Shown here: positions 3,270-42,445 of the stretch, piece by piece | How positions within the stretch are numbered: the stretch's first letter is position 1 | Layout: the number at the start of each line of letters is the position of its first letter | Source of the DNA: Escherichia phage vB_EcoM_WFbE185 | Reading direction: 5' to 3' (one strand) | Sequence record: MK373778.1 | Length of the DNA: 64,000 nt | Translations under genes and position numbers: made by a program | The notes under the pieces: generated by a model | What the model saw: only the letters and a program-made list of their open reading frames with translations | Databases searched by the model: none | What the model was told of the DNA's origin: nothing

Positions 3270-3956
3270 TTAGAAGTCGTGGGTAGAATCGGCTTCCATC
3301 GCAATAACATAACTTACTTGAGAGCTTTCAAACTTAGCTGCAACTTTATCACCAGCTCCCCACAACATTACTTTATAGTTACCTGGCTGGATTTTCATAT
3401 TAGCCATATTGATTACGAAGTTAAAGTTGTTAGAACCATCATAATCAGTAAGAGTCAAAGAATACTTAGGACGAGTCAAGCCAGAATCTTCAACTTTATT
3501 ATAGCCATTGATAACAATTTTACCATCTTTATTTGTAATAGCAATTGTATCAATCTGAAGACCACGTGAAACTCGAAGCAATTGTTGAAGGTCTTCAGCT
3601 TTAATTTCAGTAATCACAGAAGCCACTGGGAATTGAATTGGCTTATTAGGAAAAACAATGGTGCTCTTGTCAGCGGCAGGCCAATAAACTGTGGAACGTG
3701 TATCTGCAATTTTAATATTGCCATCAGTGTGCATTGAAATTTCAGCATCATCAGATACTAGACTCAAAATGCTTAAGAAGCTATTCAAATCATAAAGTGC
3801 TACGTCAAAATCAATTTCATCAGAGATATTTGCTTCCGCATAAGTGGTGCCATTAACTGCACGAGTCATAATAAATTTACCTTGACTCAGCAGAATGCCA
3901 GAGTTAATAGAGGCAAAGTTTTTCAGAATAGCGATAGTATCTTTAGACAGTTTCAT
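3270..3956 (-). CDS. 45: Sliding clamp gp45
   Basis: ORF track 3270..3971; from MKLSKDTIAILKNFASINSG closely matches remembered T4 gp45. Confidence 0.95.
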   Translation of the reverse strand: MKLSKDTIAILKNFASINSGILLSQGKFIMTRAVNGTTYAEANISDEIDFDVALYDLNSFLSILSLVSDDAEISMHTDGNIKIADTRSTVYWPAADKSTIVFPNKPIQFPVASVITEIKAEDLQQLLRVSRGLQIDTIAITNKDGKIVINGYNKVEDSGLTRPKYSLTLTDYDGSNNFNFVINMANMKIQPGNYKVMLWGAGDKVAAKFESSQVSYVIAMEADSTHDF

Positions 3957-26487: not shown

Positions 26488-26791
26488 TTAGATAGATGTA
26501 GGCTCTAATTTTATTTTCATGAACTCGGCAAATTGTCTGGCAGTTTTTATGCCTTGTTCATGACATTCAAATGCATCATCACAGGGGCTATTTTTGTAAT
26601 GCTTTGCCATATACTTATAGAATTTTTCAGAATTCTCGACATTTTGAATTTCAAACAAAGTATATACGTTTTTAATACCTGATTCCATAAAGTTATCAAA
26701 ATATGGGTCAATATGTGCAGTACCAACGATAGGAGTTGTTGCTGCAAAAAAACCCCAGCATCGCTATGACAGCTATCGCTCTTAAGGCCAT
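26488..26791 (-). pseudogene. rI: Lysis-inhibition regulator rI, split by frameshift at a homopolymer
   Basis: ATG 26791 with AGGAGG SD gives MALRAIAVIAMLGFF then stops after 27 codons; the RI domain continues in the +1 frame after plus-strand A7 at 26746-26752. Confidence 0.6.
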
Positions 26792-26803
26792 ATAGGCCTC
26801 CTG

Positions 26804-27016
26804 TTAATTTTGGCCAGTATTTATTTTTCGCCTTTGGACGGCCTTAACATCTGCGAGGTATTTTTCCAGCTTGCGCTTGCGTGTATAATCAGCTTTAGAA
26901 CCAGTTTGACGAATATCCTCGTTTAAATGAGAAATAGAATGTCCTAATTCTCTTCGGATTTCGTCCAATTGGGTTACAGTAAGATTACGAAGTTGTCTTT
27001 CGTTTAATTGCTGCAT
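26804..27016 (-). CDS. Hypothetical basic protein (rI.1 position)
   Basis: ORF track 70 aa; late promoter TATAAATA 23 nt upstream. Confidence 0.5.
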
Positions 27017-27038
27017 ATACCTCTTGGTTAGATATTAG

Positions 27039-27046
27039 TATTTATA
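27039..27046 (-). promoter_or_regulatory. Late promoter TATAAATA
   Basis: Plus tatttata immediately upstream of ORF 26804..27016. Confidence 0.55.
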
Positions 27047-27623
27047 ACAACCCTGTCAAATCGTTCCAATGCTTCCGGCATAATGACACATATCTATCGG
27101 TATCACCAATTTCAATTTGACTGCCATCTGTAATTGGAAGTCCGTCTTCCGTGACTCTAGCTACCATTGTGGCCTTTTTACCACAATGACAGACACCTTT
27201 AAGTTCAACAAGCTTATCGGCAATAGCCATTAATGCTTGAGAACCTTCAAATAGATTACCTTTAAAATCTGTTCGTAGTCCATATGCCATTACCGGCACA
27301 TTGTACACGTCAACAATACGACTAAGTTGATACACCTTTTCAGTAGTTAAGAACTGAGCTTCGTCAACAAATACACAGTGAATATCCTTTTGTGCTGCAG
27401 CCCATTTATAGAATTCAAAGATATCCATGTCTTTTGTAATTATATTGGCGTCCTTACGAATACCAATACGAGAGACTATTTCACCTTTTGAATCGCGAGT
27501 ATCAATAGCCGGTTTAAGAACTAATACACCCATGCCACGTTCTTTATAGTTATGTGCGGCAGTAAGTAATGAAGCAGACTTACCAGCGTTCATAGCAGCA
27601 TATGTAAAAATTAAACTAGCCAT
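27042..27623 (-). CDS. tk: Thymidine kinase
   Basis: 193 aa; P-loop AMNAGKS; Zn-ribbon CHCGKK...CRKH; resembles T4 Tk. Confidence 0.9.
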   Translation of the reverse strand: MASLIFTYAAMNAGKSASLLTAAHNYKERGMGVLVLKPAIDTRDSKGEIVSRIGIRKDANIITKDMDIFEFYKWAAAQKDIHCVFVDEAQFLTTEKVYQLSRIVDVYNVPVMAYGLRTDFKGNLFEGSQALMAIADKLVELKGVCHCGKKATMVARVTEDGLPITDGSQIEIGDTDRYVSLCRKHWNDLTGLL

Positions 27624-27632
27624 AAGAGTCCT

Positions 27633-27815
27633 TTATAGTGAATTCACATAGTCAATGAGTTCTTGTTCTTTCCTGTCAAATGATTCCATCAATGCTTGAT
27701 ATTCTTCGTCTGTTAAAGGAGCATATTCATCGTACGCATTGGTGGCTGCTTGCTCATCCAATAGGTCATGGATAAGTTCGAACAGTTTAGTTTTCTCTTC
27801 TTTAGTCAATTTCAT
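27633..27815 (-). CDS. Small acidic protein, 60 aa
   Basis: ORF track. Confidence 0.45.
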   Translation of the reverse strand: MKLTKEEKTKLFELIHDLLDEQAATNAYDEYAPLTDEEYQALMESFDRKEQELIDYVNSL

Positions 27816-28033
27816 TTAGGTTCACCTTCTTTAACGAAATCTGGGTAAGGGTAAAATCCTGAGTAAAACCCTTCACCTTTATGATTGCTACAACCTTTGT
27901 TCGAACAGTAACACCAATAATCAAAATCACAAGCCATTTCGTCATTGCATAAAGCAAAAACTACAGGCCATTCGCATTTTTCGCATTTAGCACCTGTAAG
28001 AATTTTTGTTTGGCTCATAACAATGGTTCCCAA
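27812..28033 (-). CDS. Cys-rich small protein, 73 aa
   Basis: ORF track; CEKCEW ... CYCSNKGC. Confidence 0.45.
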   Translation of the reverse strand: MGTIVMSQTKILTGAKCEKCEWPVVFALCNDEMACDFDYWCYCSNKGCSNHKGEGFYSGFYPYPDFVKEGEPK

Positions 28034-28512
28034 TCAACAATCACAATTTCTAGTTTAGTGGAATACGTATCTAAAATCTCTTCGATGACATCCCAGTTTC
28101 CACCACCAATACCTGCACCAATTCTTGGCATATAAATTACAGGCTTTGTTATCTTATTTTTTCCGAATTCATTTAATTCTATTATACAATTCATTAAAGC
28201 AGAGTACTCAAAATTAGGTCCCGGCTCAAACTGTGTATAAAGATTAAAGCAATAAGCTTTATGGGTCTTAAAATATTTTTCATAAACCGAATAAGTCCCG
28301 AGTTTAGACTTGTCTCCGAATTCGGTTTGAAGTTTATCGGCTTCTAAAATTTTTGGATAAGCCTTTGCCAATTGACCTGCTACACCGGCACCCATTGTAT
28401 GAAAACAATTGCACCCATGAGCAATATTATTACCTTTAGAAAACAGGGCGACAATATCGCCCTTGATATAGTTTTTAATCACTTGCTGCAAGTCCTCTAG
28501 TATAAGAGTCAA
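28015..28512 (-). CDS. Macro-domain protein (predicted ADP-ribose binding/hydrolase), start uncertain
   Basis: ORF track; IAHGCNCFHTMGAGVAGQ and YMPRIGAGIGGGNWDVIEEIL resemble the two macro-domain loops; plus 28510-28512 is caa so the listed start is TTG, likely true start GTG about 28482. Confidence 0.55.
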   Translation of the reverse strand: MTLILEDLQQVIKNYIKGDIVALFSKGNNIAHGCNCFHTMGAGVAGQLAKAYPKILEADKLQTEFGDKSKLGTYSVYEKYFKTHKAYCFNLYTQFEPGPNFEYSALMNCIIELNEFGKNKITKPVIYMPRIGAGIGGGNWDVIEEILDTYSTKLEIVIVDWEPLL

Positions 28513-28822
28513 CTAGGCGGTCTACCATAGAATTGCATGCTGCCTTATCTTTAGGCTCCGCCACCGAGCATTCTAATATTTGCCATTTTTTATGATATCG
28601 TTTAATTAAGGTAGACGCCTTGAACCTACTAGACGCCCCATCTTTTTCTCCGTCTTTATATGCGTATAACAATTTTTGTGAAAAATCTACTTTACACTCT
28701 TGACTTTTACCACAATAATCAGACGCCGTTCTGTTTGTATACTCCGTTACATCAGTATATGTAGTATTAGCAAGAGCGTTAAATGAAACCAAGCCAACTA
28801 TTAAAGCCAACATTTTGGTCAT
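28475..28822 (-). CDS. Secreted Cys-containing protein, 115 aa
   Basis: ORF track; signal peptide MTKMLALIVGLVSFNALA; four Cys. Confidence 0.5.
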   Translation of the reverse strand: MTKMLALIVGLVSFNALANTTYTDVTEYTNRTASDYCGKSQECKVDFSQKLLYAYKDGEKDGASSRFKASTLIKRYHKKWQILECSVAEPKDKAACNSMVDRLVDSYTRGLAASD

Positions 28823-29361
28823 TCTTTTATTTCCAGTAGTTTATTTGATTTAAGGTAATTAGCCTTTTCTAGGACTTCAGAAGCATATTTACTTCCGGCA
28901 CTTGTCTTCCATCCCGCATTATATGAGGATATAGCTTTTCTTATATCCCCGTTATGTATATTTAACCAATAAGAAAATTCGATATAAGCCCATCTGGCTG
29001 AATTAGACCGCTTAGATAGCATTTTCTTAATTTGGGCATCAGTCATATTATAACCAAGTTGGTTAATTCTTGCCCTCATTGTTGGTAGATAATTTTGGAA
29101 CATTCCATACGCATGGTGACCTTTCTTATCTTTAAGATTAATACCGGCCGATGATTCCTGCCATAGTATTGCGGCCATTATGTATCCAAGTCCTTTCTTA
29201 TGCATATTTTCATGCGTTTTAAATTTTCCATCCTTAGAAAACTGTTCCCCAAACTGATAAGCATAATTCAAGTTATCGAGTTGGACATTACTAAAAGTAT
29301 GCTCGGAGCTATGTGCTGATAATGAAAGAGCAAATAGACCAGCGAGTAGTGCTTTTCTCAT
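28819..29361 (-). CDS. Secreted lytic transglycosylase-like protein (SLT domain)
   Basis: ORF track 180 aa; signal peptide MRKALLAGLFALSLSAHS; motifs LWQESS, YGMFQ, SYNAG. Confidence 0.6.
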   Translation of the reverse strand: MRKALLAGLFALSLSAHSSEHTFSNVQLDNLNYAYQFGEQFSKDGKFKTHENMHKKGLGYIMAAILWQESSAGINLKDKKGHHAYGMFQNYLPTMRARINQLGYNMTDAQIKKMLSKRSNSARWAYIEFSYWLNIHNGDIRKAISSYNAGWKTSAGSKYASEVLEKANYLKSNKLLEIKE

Positions 29362-29369
29362 GTTTACCT

Positions 29370-29828
29370 CTAGATTTTAATCACTGCTTTAGAAGCTTTT
29401 CCTGGTAGTCGTTTACTGTTAATAATAGCCATTCTACATTGAAGAGTCTTCATTTTAAATGCTGGATTTTCGCGACAAACTGTAAGTCCTAACCAAAGAT
29501 TTCCGTCAGTTATTTCTAAACGGCCCGGGCGATATTCGACACCTTCGTCAAAATCTTCATCAACATCTGGACGTGCCGGCATTGATAAAAATTCTGCAAC
29601 TTCTTTAACATGATTTTTTACTTTATGAAATAATTCAAAAACGTAATTCTCATCTATTTCTCTCTGGATGGCACGATCTAAGAGATGTTGAGAATACTTG
29701 ATATGAAAGCCTGGTAGTCCAAGAGACTTTGCAGCATCTTTTATACTGGCATTTATTTTGCGGAACTCCGTTTCAAAGATTCGACGGAGTTTATTACGGC
29801 GGATAAAAACGTCTGAATTGATAGTCAT
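29370..29828 (-). CDS. regB: Endoribonuclease RegB
   Basis: ORF track 29370..29852; from MTINSDVFIRRNKLRR...LKYSQHLLDRAIQREIDE matches remembered T4 RegB. Confidence 0.85.
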   Translation of the reverse strand: MTINSDVFIRRNKLRRIFETEFRKINASIKDAAKSLGLPGFHIKYSQHLLDRAIQREIDENYVFELFHKVKNHVKEVAEFLSMPARPDVDEDFDEGVEYRPGRLEITDGNLWLGLTVCRENPAFKMKTLQCRMAIINSKRLPGKASKAVIKI

Positions 29829-29856
29829 TTTGATTTCTCCTCTAGTTGACAAGTCT

Positions 29857-29885
29857 ATAGTAACACAACTAGAGGAGAAGTAAAC
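29857..29885 (-). promoter_or_regulatory. Sigma70-type early promoter nested in an 11-bp inverted repeat
   Basis: GTTTAC-17-TACTAT; arms TTCTCCTCTAG at 29835-29845 and 29869-29879. Confidence 0.5.
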
Positions 29886-29889
29886 TACT

Positions 29890-30105
29890 TTATTGATAAA
29901 ATGGAGTTAAAGCCCAAGATTCTTTAGATACCATATTGGCGAAATGCCTCATCTCTTCGATTTGGCGACGACGCTGGTCAGCATAGTCTTCTTCGCCTTC
30001 TTCCTTACAATCTTCAAGGTCTTCTTCAAGATACTTTAAGTATTCACTACAAATTTTGTTGACCTTTTCTTGAAAGTCCAATAACCCAGTAATAGTAGAA
30101 GCCAT
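29890..30105 (-). CDS. Hypothetical acidic protein, 71 aa
   Basis: ORF track. Confidence 0.45.
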   Translation of the reverse strand: MASTITGLLDFQEKVNKICSEYLKYLEEDLEDCKEEGEEDYADQRRRQIEEMRHFANMVSKESWALTPFYQ

Positions 30106-30371
30106 TAGTATTTTTCCTCAGGACGAAATACTGCACGACACGCCCACATGCTGGCTTCTTTTAGATGTTGCTTAGCATACTTAAGAGCCTGCACTGCATC
30201 CATATCTTCTTTGGTTTGTTCCTCTGTTTCATTTTCTTTCAAGATATATGCTTCTTCAATCAGAGCATCAAACAACAATCCAAGACGGACTTCGGCATCT
30301 TTAATAGCGTTCACTTTACTGATTTTATCATCGGTATGCGGCTTGTAGCCTTTGATGTCTTCAATCGACAT
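30105..30371 (-). CDS. Hypothetical protein, about 88 aa
   Basis: ORF track 30105..30539 trimmed to internal Met. Confidence 0.4.
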   Translation of the reverse strand: MSIEDIKGYKPHTDDKISKVNAIKDAEVRLGLLFDALIEEAYILKENETEEQTKEDMDAVQALKYAKQHLKEASMWACRAVFRPEEKY

Positions 30372-30585
30372 AAGGAATTTCCTCATCGGTGGCAAGGTCG
30401 TATTCGACCAATTGGATAGGCTCATTAATACCATATCCACGTACAGTGATATCAGTTGCCGGATAGTTTCCAGTAATATCACCCATTCTAAATGATTCAA
30501 TGAATGATTGCTCGCCTGAGCAACTAAACCAGGCGGCAAAACATTTTAAAACATCTTCGGACCCTTCTATAATCAATTTAGCCAT
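30361..30585 (-). CDS. Hypothetical acidic protein, 74 aa
   Basis: ORF track. Confidence 0.45.
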   Translation of the reverse strand: MAKLIIEGSEDVLKCFAAWFSCSGEQSFIESFRMGDITGNYPATDITVRGYGINEPIQLVEYDLATDEEIPYVD

Positions 30586-30947
30586 TATAGACTCTCAGTA
30601 AAGGTACGAGCAATAACGTCACGCTGCTGTTCCGGAGTCAGAGAGTTAAAGCGAACTGCATAACCGGATACACGGATGGTCAACTGCGGATATTTTTCTG
30701 GATGCTTAACTGCATCTTCCAGAGTTTCACGACGCAGAACGTTAACGTTCAGGTGTTGACCACCTTCAATTTTAACTTTAGGTTGATGTTCAATTTCAAT
30801 TTCACGGGCATTCAAACCGTAGAAAATTTCCGGGTCTACAATAGCGTCTTCTTTAAAAGTCTTAGAGACAATAATCCGGGCCTGAGTACCGTCTTCAAAA
30901 TAAATAGTGCCTTTGTGTGCACCTTCAAGAATTTGATATGCTTTCAT
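30585..30947 (-). CDS. grcA: Autonomous glycyl-radical cofactor (GrcA/YfiD-like)
   Basis: 120 aa; C-terminal [60 protein letters not shown] with RVSGYAV glycyl-radical motif. Confidence 0.85.
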
Positions 30948-30953
30948 ATAACC

Positions 30954-31262
30954 TCAATTAGAAAATAAATTTATCCAAGTTTTTTCTTTAATCAAAAATG
31001 GGTCGGAATTAAACGCCATTAAACTTTGAGTGATTAATCCCTTAAATGGCCCGTCAATAAATTCCATTTTGAAATGCGGAATACTAGTCATCAACCGTGC
31101 ATTAGGAGCAGTACAAAGAACCTGCTGCCCTGCAAACGGTCCTTTAGTTAAACGGTATCGTTTAGGTTTAAAATGGTAAATCTCGTAATTTTCTACAAGA
31201 GCCCTTTTATTGCATACTGGGCTGTTATAACAATACTCAAAAACTTCAATAGTTGTCATCAT
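30954..31262 (-). CDS. Hypothetical protein, 102 aa
   Basis: ORF track. Confidence 0.5.
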   Translation of the reverse strand: MMTTIEVFEYCYNSPVCNKRALVENYEIYHFKPKRYRLTKGPFAGQQVLCTAPNARLMTSIPHFKMEFIDGPFKGLITQSLMAFNSDPFLIKEKTWINLFSN

Positions 31263-42288: not shown

Positions 42289-42365
<77 letters not shown>

Positions 42366-42371
42366 AATATA

Positions 42372-42445
42372 TGACCCAGACCAGATTCGAACTGGTAACC
42401 TTTCCCTTATGAGGGGACTGCTGCTAACCATTGAGCTACAGGGCC
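42372..42445 (-). tRNA. tRNA with CAU anticodon (Ile2 or Met)
   Basis: Hand fold: T-arm ACCAG-TTCGAAT-CTGGT, anticodon loop CTCATAA, D-loop AATGGTTA; one mismatch in acceptor stem; CCA not encoded. Confidence 0.6.

Follow-up and report, generated by a model that had tools for sequence, protein, structure and literature searches.

The vs.1 and vs genes of a Mosigvirus as a probable exported module of a lytic transglycosylase-like protein and a candidate partner

Two adjacent genes of Escherichia phage vB_EcoM_WFbE185 (sequence record MK373778.1; the whole stretch of 64,000 nucleotides analyzed is called the window below) are orthologs, as judged by sequence identity, of phage T4 genes vs.1 and vs, and we lean toward the view that together they form an exported, pre-replicative module made up of an enzyme and its partner. 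The first open reading frame (ORF; 28819..29361, minus strand) codes for a 180-residue precursor that is 83% identical to T4 Vs.1 (T4p112, UniProt P13311), and the second (28475..28822, minus strand) codes for a 115-residue precursor that is 67% identical to T4 Vs (T4p111, UniProt P13310). In PHROGs, the larger protein matched phrog_600 (unknown function; E 3.7e-67) and the smaller one phrog_1256 (valyl tRNA synthetase modifier; E 1.8e-35); the precomputed Pfam accession of the latter is PF26829. Sequence comparison showed that the region is 98–99% identical to genomes of Mosigvirus, a genus of T4-like Straboviridae. An earlier note, made from the letters alone, had described the two ORFs as an SLT-type lytic transglycosylase and a cysteine-containing partner, both with signal peptides, and had not recognized that both are known, named T4 genes. 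Its basic observations were confirmed: the two neighboring ORFs, on the minus strand, their signal peptide features, the ES, GMFQ and YNAG motifs of the 180-residue protein and the four cysteines of the 115-residue protein are all present and, as described below, conserved among relatives. Vs.1 is predicted to be a Sec-exported lytic transglycosylase of the SLT/GH23 type, and Vs an exported four-helix protein with two cysteine pairs.

Both proteins begin with a positively charged n-region, a hydrophobic core of 11–12 residues and small residues at positions -3 and -1. The predicted signal peptide of Vs.1 is MRKALLAGLFALSLSAHS (residues 1–18, 29308..29361, minus strand), with cleavage after AHS and before SEH, and that of Vs is MTKMLALIVGLVSFNALA (residues 1–18, 28769..28822, minus strand), with an A-L-A cleavage site followed by NTT. 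The corresponding mature proteins of T4 are predicted to begin with SEHTFSNVQLDNMR (Vs.1, cleavage after S18) and DTSYTEIR (Vs, cleavage after A20). Export was called with a crude signal-peptide heuristic applied to the sequences, not with SignalP. This heuristic passed 10 of the 161 ATG-initiated ORFs of at least 60 residues in the window, including the two neighbors vs.1 and vs, and it passed 57 of 62 distinct relatives of Vs.1 and 55 of 56 distinct relatives of Vs. The N-terminal sequences diverge among these relatives, and the n/h/c organization is retained. In three distinct Vs sequences the A-x-A site is replaced by a lipobox (ALSGC, cleavage before K), which would be sensible only for an exported protein. 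Judging from these sequence features, export of Vs is highly likely. The lipobox-bearing N-terminus, MKKLFVLLVV(V/F)ALSGC with predicted cleavage before K, was found in a group resembling Enterobacter phage PG7, where it predicts a lipoprotein and not a soluble periplasmic protein; the ORFs concerned begin at about position 3546 in loci L068, L069 and L092 and at about 2495 in L066.

The predicted mature Vs.1 has 162 residues (18.7 kDa, isoelectric point 9.6). Its motifs, in full-length numbering, are E69-S70-S71, G86-M-F-Q89-N90 and S146-Y147-N-A-G150, and in an alignment of 43 Vs.1 relatives, extending down to 40% identity, residues E69, S71, G86, Q89, N90, Y147, N148 and G150 were invariant. 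Glu69, which lies within WQE69SS (codon 29155..29157, minus strand) and was found in 43 of 43 sequences, is the predicted single catalytic acid/base. The segment G86-M-F-Q89 (29095..29106, minus strand) corresponds to the G-L-M-Q-type motif that family-1 enzymes have 15–20 residues after the catalytic Glu, with G and Q invariant, and Y147-N-A-G150 (28912..28923, minus strand) corresponds to A-Y-N-x-G, with Y, N and G invariant. As many as 39 of the 43 relatives matched the Pfam SLT family (PF01464) at E <=0.01 (best 1.3e-7), and no other Pfam family was matched. An AlphaFold (AF2) model of Vs.1, built on an alignment, had a predicted local distance difference test score (pLDDT) of 90.5 and a predicted template modeling (TM) score of 0.83. 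In this model E69 is at the C-terminal end of helix 58–69, as expected for the SLT/GH23 family. When the model was compared with PDB using Foldseek, the top 30 matches were all GH23/SLT or otherwise lysozyme-like structures (probability up to 1.0, TM about 0.5), among them the GH23 chitinase of Ralstonia (3w6e), which was the best match, MltD of P. aeruginosa (8rhi), Slt of P. aeruginosa and Slt70 of E. coli (5o2n, 6fcq, 1sly), the phi6 lysin P5 (4dq5) and T7 gp16 (9jyy). In hhalign comparisons of single sequences, WQE69SS was aligned with RQESAW of Slt70 and WTESRF of T7 gp16, whose ES motifs we take to hold their catalytic Glu, GMFQ with their GLMQ and GMMQ, respectively, and SYNAG with AYNQG of gp16.

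Several results weigh against this assignment. Vs.1 of the window scored 18.8 bits against SLT (E 1.3e-3), below the gathering cutoff of 21.3; the Foldseek E-values were about 1e-2; the hhalign scores against Slt70 and gp16 were weak; and a profile of the 43 relatives, searched against PDB, recovered no SLT chain and gave chance matches (metacaspase, methylase). In addition, phmmer searches of PDB with Vs.1 and with Vs yielded no match, and NCBIfam has no family for either protein. The lytic transglycosylase of the earlier note is nonetheless supported as a divergent SLT/GH23-type protein with a predicted export signal. We conclude from the alignments and the model that Vs.1 appears to be a divergent, minimal GH23/SLT protein, for which the sequence case is marginal when the protein is taken alone and good when it is taken as a family; that it is an exported peptidoglycan glycosidase of the lysozyme superfamily seems likely, and we hold this with good confidence. 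The alternative that the protein has the GH23 fold, yet is a hydrolytic enzyme resembling goose-type lysozyme or chitinase, or a non-catalytic peptidoglycan binder, and not a lytic transglycosylase, appears improbable. It would fit the chitinase 3w6e as the closest structure, the marginal SLT match and the presence of a second invariant acidic residue, E128, in the 43-sequence alignment. However, the E-S, G-x-x-Q and Y-N-x-G motifs are the set of family-1 lytic transglycosylases, and goose-type lysozymes have extra Asp residues in the loop corresponding to E69-G86, where the alignment showed no conserved acidic residue. The SLT likeness itself is not new: Nolan et al. 2006 (PMC1524935) described marginal matches of vs.1 to SLT across six T4-like genomes and cited earlier PSI-BLAST results, and some GenBank records label the vs.1 product as an SLT-domain protein.

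The predicted mature Vs has 97 residues and a mass of 11.0 kDa (12.8–13.1 kDa for the precursor). Its four cysteines, C37, C43, C85 and C96, are conserved in the family and form two pairs, C37-x5-C43 (28694..28714, minus strand) and C85-x10-C96 (28535..28570, minus strand). The AF2 model (pLDDT 84.6) shows a bundle of four helices; the first pair flanks the loop that joins helices 1 and 2, and the second the loop that joins helices 3 and 4. The family extends to Acinetobacter phages. In one of them, a 109-residue ORF following vs.1 starts with a signal peptide, contains C-x5-C and C-x8-C, and has YITGLL toward its C-terminus; this ORF also bears the precomputed accession PF26829, and hhalign related it to the enterobacterial Vs family (probability 95%, E 2.7e-8) with the four cysteines in register. 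A combined alignment of the enterobacterial and Acinetobacter clades showed no variation at C85 or C96 (18 of 18 sequences) and, after this second pair, an invariant C-terminal motif, L103..Y107..G110-L111. The 2+2 cysteine pattern was present in 54 of 56 distinct Vs-like sequences, with a spacing of x5, x6 or x10 in the first pair and x8 or x10 in the second. An 85-residue Vs of Dhakavirus (vB_EcoM_005, locus L007, 2393..2650) is without precisely the segment that holds the first pair. The variable spacing, the loss of a single pair and the lipoprotein variant fit disulfides in an exported Vs, and poorly fit a cytoplasmic zinc site. We also observed an 80-residue metagenomic protein (P0128) with the conserved C-terminal half of Vs, an unrelated charged N-terminus and no signal peptide.

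Vs relatives were few: 4 were found by a word-indexed protein search and 7 representatives among 1.84 billion, and tblastn detected Vs in 795 phage records and Vs.1 in 2060. Within the scope of these sequence searches, Vs appears to be without relatives outside a narrow phage family. Foldseek comparison of the Vs model with PDB gave no significant structural relative (best E 0.79, generic helical bundles), and a BFVD search returned matches to its own family alone. Two candidate relationships were rejected. A DUF1311 entry was discounted as a structural relative (Foldseek probability 0.03), and a paralogy with the RI antiholin, considered because of a shared C-x5-C loop and export signal, received an hhalign probability of 1.3% over 9 columns in the signal region.

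The case for a pair comes from the distribution and adjacency of the two genes. A combined enterobacterial and Acinetobacter Vs profile was used to search the ORFs that surround vs.1 in 70 loci of viral contigs. A Vs-like ORF was located immediately downstream of vs.1 (gap of -8 to +7 nucleotides) in 55 of these loci; of the others, 1 had a truncated Vs copy, 8 had a copy 0.5–1.2 kb downstream, including the KP15/GAP161-like group, and 6, from Aeromonas phages and two 300-kb contigs, had none. Conversely, each of the 23 Vs loci found in viral contigs was on a contig that also bears vs.1. Since Vs was not found without vs.1 in these 23 loci and Vs.1 is sometimes alone, the dependence appears to be one-way, as expected of an accessory factor of an enzyme. 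The pair persists in those Acinetobacter phages whose neighborhood is devoid of regB, tk.4 and tk, and inserts were found between vs and tk.4 and rarely between vs.1 and vs. In the window, the stop codon of vs.1 and the start codon of vs overlap in ATGA (28819..28822, minus strand), an arrangement that is compatible with translational coupling, yet common among T4 early genes.

It should be noted, however, that a number of observations argue against a functional pair. Vs.1 is found without detectable Vs in Aeromonas T4-like phages, in one Ackermannviridae locus and in one Felixounavirus locus, so that Vs is dispensable for Vs.1; regB-vs.1 is about as conserved as vs.1-vs in enterobacterial phages; overlapping start and stop codons are usual in the T4 early region; and Vs showed no sequence or structural similarity to the known inhibitor folds Spackle, Ivy, PliG and MliC. 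The adjacency of vs.1 and vs could be plain synteny, as the loci are not independent and the whole region is syntenic. It is possible, if somewhat short of probable, that Vs acts on or with Vs.1. A rather doubtful alternative is that both proteins are exported and work independently, with Vs directed at a host envelope component such as a lytic transglycosylase, an outer-membrane protein or a receptor. The wide occurrence of Vs.1 without Vs, the different fitness classes of vs.1 and vs knockdowns (see below) and the 0.5–1.2 kb gap between the genes in the KP15/GAP161-like group would agree with independence, whereas Vs without vs.1 was not seen in the 23 loci sampled and the adjacency survives a change of both flanks. 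In Aeromonas phage avDM4 (L009, 2986..3426), a 146-residue predicted lipoprotein, MKKSIAAVLALSIYGC..., is encoded 0.5 kb downstream of vs.1; it could be an unrelated exported neighbor or an analogue of Vs.

An exported Vs conflicts with its current name. T4 vs and hundreds of relatives are annotated as valyl-tRNA synthetase (ValRS) modifier, and a Vs that is exported and oxidized in the periplasm would have no contact with ValRS in the living cell. A point against export is that the vs locus is said to have been defined genetically and biochemically, with a cytoplasmic ValRS phenotype, in the work of McClain et al. 1975, Mueller and Marchin 1977 and Marchin 1980, and the tau peptide of Mueller and Marchin 1977 was reportedly about 10 kDa. 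In the literature searched, which lay outside the classical vs/tau papers, we found no experiment tying the vs ORF to ValRS. N-terminally His-tagged T4 Vs, produced in the cytoplasm, was insoluble and occurred in inclusion bodies (PMC8076793), an observation on the side of export. Either the ORF was assigned to the locus by map position or size, or a processed form binds ValRS only in broken cells, or the signal is unused.

The corresponding alternative is that Vs is the cytoplasmic ValRS modifier (tau) as annotated, that its N-terminus is non-functional or partly used as a signal, and that its adjacency to vs.1 is mere synteny. We consider this unlikely. The annotation of T4 vs and its relatives, the name of PHROG 1256, the broad synteny of gene order in the region and the classical genetics and biochemistry reported for the locus are on its side, and the predicted 11.0 kDa of mature Vs is near the approximately 10 kDa reported for tau, which would fit a processed form being tau. 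On the other hand, a cytoplasmic role is difficult to reconcile with a signal-peptide-like N-terminus in 55 of 56 distinct members despite sequence drift, the lipobox in three members, the invariant cysteine pairs with variable spacing, which are typical of disulfides in an oxidizing compartment, the retention of the family in Acinetobacter phages and the lack of an experimental link between the vs ORF and ValRS in the literature searched. Export of Vs and modification of ValRS in vivo are not strictly exclusive. Our tentative proposal, which we do not put forward as probable, is that the vs product is an exported, disulfide-stapled four-helix partner of Vs.1, serving as an inhibitor or targeting factor and not as a ValRS binder, so that the two genes would constitute an enzyme-regulator module. 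With regard to annotation, we observed that the word "modifier" is often dropped from the label of vs, which leaves "valyl-tRNA synthetase"; some published genome papers accordingly count the product as phage translation machinery, and one or more treat it as a phage tRNA synthetase. vs.1 has been mislabeled as "endoribonuclease" (copied from regB), "leucine aminopeptidase, subunit E, domain 1" and "site-specific RNA endonuclease".

Published data provide information on when the two genes are used. Both T4 Vs.1 and T4 Vs have been detected, and their RNA is early and their protein middle (PMC9697503 supplement), so that they would act ahead of late lysis gene expression. In a genome-wide CRISPRi-ART screen of T4, vs.1 was classified as "Semi-Fit" (score 0.81, KS p 0.099), one of five such genes of unknown function, and vs (0.35) and regB (0.14) were "Not Fit" (PMC11879866 supplement). 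The modest size of the vs.1 effect is a further point against a functional module.

The earlier note had suggested that Vs.1, as a periplasmic muramidase, may act in superinfection or lysis timing, and had cited its position near rI. This argument from position found little support in this genome. The rI gene is about 2 kb from vs in both the window and T4, with six genes in between (tk, tk.1–tk.4 and rI.1), of which at least two are of a cytoplasmic enzyme type (thymidine kinase, macro domain), and the order regB-vs.1-vs-tk.4-tk-rI is general T4-like synteny. A part in superinfection exclusion or, jointly with rI, in lysis timing and lysis inhibition seems quite unlikely. In its favor, Vs.1 is predicted to be in a suitable compartment, the periplasm; Acinetobacter phage vB_AbaM_DLP2 has vs.1 and vs in one uninterrupted run with two exported ORFs and rI, which keeps the idea alive; and in Felixounavirus JH2 a vs.1-like gene lies between rIIB and a spanin gene. 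However, expression of vs.1 and vs is early/middle and not late, the six intervening genes separate vs from rI, no lysis phenotype of vs.1 or vs is recorded in the literature searched, and the rI gene of the window is apparently frameshifted whereas vs.1 and vs are intact. The DLP2 locus (L008, 1938..3784) consists of vs.1, the vs homolog, a 141-residue ORF, a 99-residue ORF and rI in consecutive order, all five coding for N-terminal export or anchor signals, with neither tk nor tk.4 among them. In the window, rI (about 26488..26791, minus strand) has T7 at 26746..26752, compared with T6 in Shigella phage JK42 and phage SCS57, and the frame opened by the ATG at 26791 runs into a stop after 27 codons; in most of the 154 related records, 300 nucleotides align to the 301-nucleotide rI query. 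The apparent shift reflects either a mutation of the r type (rapid lysis) or an error in sequencing the homopolymer.

Comparison with known systems places the two proteins as follows. T4 vs.1 and vs are direct orthologs (83% and 67%) in the same order, regB-vs.1-vs-tk.4, with no substantive difference, and the window represents the Mosigvirus version. Vs.1 resembles E. coli Slt70 and MltE and P. aeruginosa Slt and MltD in its fold, the E-S motif at a helix end, the G-L-M-Q-type and A-Y-N-x-G motifs and, by prediction, its periplasmic location. Unlike these bacterial family-1 enzymes, it consists of one minimal domain with some 160 residues, is phage-encoded and is very divergent. The fold and motifs are also those of the N-terminal domain of T7 gp16 and of phi6 P5; PRD1 P7 is another virion-borne phage lytic transglycosylase. 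T7 gp16 and phi6 P5 enter with the particle and act from outside, whereas Vs.1 has its own predicted Sec signal and is made inside the cell in the early-middle period; Vs.1 would presumably be absent from the virion. VirB1, P19 and EtgA are small exported SLT enzymes of mobile elements; they make local openings in the sacculus, frequently under the control of a partner protein. In contrast to Vs.1, they serve envelope-spanning machines, and we know of no envelope-spanning assembly that needs Vs.1. A functional analogy for Vs is offered by T4 Spackle (gp61.3), Ivy, PliG and MliC, small periplasmic proteins with signal peptides that inhibit peptidoglycan glycosidases by binding to them; Spackle, which is helical and disulfide-bonded, inhibits the gp5 tail lysozyme. 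Vs shares neither sequence nor structural similarity with these proteins. In the literature searched, no experiment demonstrating an envelope function was found for T4 Vs.1 or T4 Vs.

From these data we infer a possible course of events. Vs.1 would be exported via Sec with removal of its 18-residue signal peptide, yielding a soluble periplasmic lytic transglycosylase of the SLT/GH23 type. With Glu69 as its single acid/base, the enzyme would cleave the bond between N-acetylmuramic acid (MurNAc) and N-acetylglucosamine (GlcNAc) in peptidoglycan, leaving 1,6-anhydro-MurNAc ends. In this way Vs.1 would probably make the sacculus looser or remodel it from within in the latent period, with a modest benefit for phage fitness; its purpose may be to ready the cell for rapid lysis, to accommodate the swelling cell or to counter a host response. 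Vs, translated from the overlapping downstream gene, would likewise be exported, in some phages as a lipoprotein, and in the periplasm may form a four-helix bundle with two disulfides (C37-C43 and C85-C96). There it might serve as an accessory binding partner of Vs.1, most likely one that restrains or targets the enzyme, by analogy with Spackle and gp5.

Several other features of the locus were examined. All genes of the vs.1/vs region are on the minus strand, in the order regB (29370..29852), the 180-residue ORF, the 115-residue ORF, tk.4, three small ORFs and tk (27042..27623), and T4 has regB, vs.1, vs, tk.4, tk.3–tk.1 and tk at corresponding positions, including the overlapping arrangement. 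The ATG of vs.1 is preceded by GAGG at 7 nucleotides. A scan of 26800..31000 for promoters and terminators found a number of sites that was not above that in shuffled sequence. A terminator-like hairpin, AGGGCGATATTGTCGCCCT followed by GTTTTCT, occurs at 28445..28463 (minus strand), 12 nucleotides past the vs stop codon and within the 5' end of tk.4; it is kept in T4 and UPEC07, but encodes the conserved macro-domain KGDIVAL, and its conservation may stem from the tk.4 protein sequence. Because the site counts were at the level of shuffled sequence and the hairpin lies inside macro-domain codons, no boundary of a transcription unit was drawn. The tk.4 gene (28015..about 28482, minus strand) apparently starts with GTG in the window and with ATG in T4. 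Its product matched Pfam Macro (28 bits) and, weakly and far under the cutoff, the macro domain of the DarG antitoxin (NCBIfam NF048014, 31 bits); DarG is a DNA ADP-ribosyl glycohydrolase antitoxin. Elsewhere in the window, tRNA-Arg(tct) and tRNA-Met(cat) are neighbors at 42289..42445 (minus strand), as in related Mosigvirus genomes.

Within the literature searched, a description of the Vs family as exported proteins with two disulfides, sometimes lipoproteins, that are tied to vs.1 in enterobacterial T4-like phages and Acinetobacter phages appears to be unreported. The link between Vs and vs.1 was found in Tevenvirinae and relatives and in Twarogvirinae (Acinetobacter). T4 serves as the reference of its phage family, and the names given to its genes are passed on to thousands of genomes; should Vs be exported, the label valyl-tRNA synthetase modifier, which vs carries in T4 and about 800 relatives, would be incorrect or incomplete. 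If the proposed enzyme-regulator module is real, the classical tau/ValRS activity would belong to another ORF of the region or arise from mixing of compartments in extracts. The vs.1-vs pair is small, non-essential and readily testable. The presence of an early, signal-peptide-bearing Vs.1 in the Straboviridae, Ackermannviridae and Felixounavirus records examined, together with the cost of its knockdown, suggests an unstudied editing of the wall from within, well before lysis. Under the tentative proposal of an enzyme-regulator module, the two genes would represent a previously undescribed phage module that remodels the host wall in the latent period.

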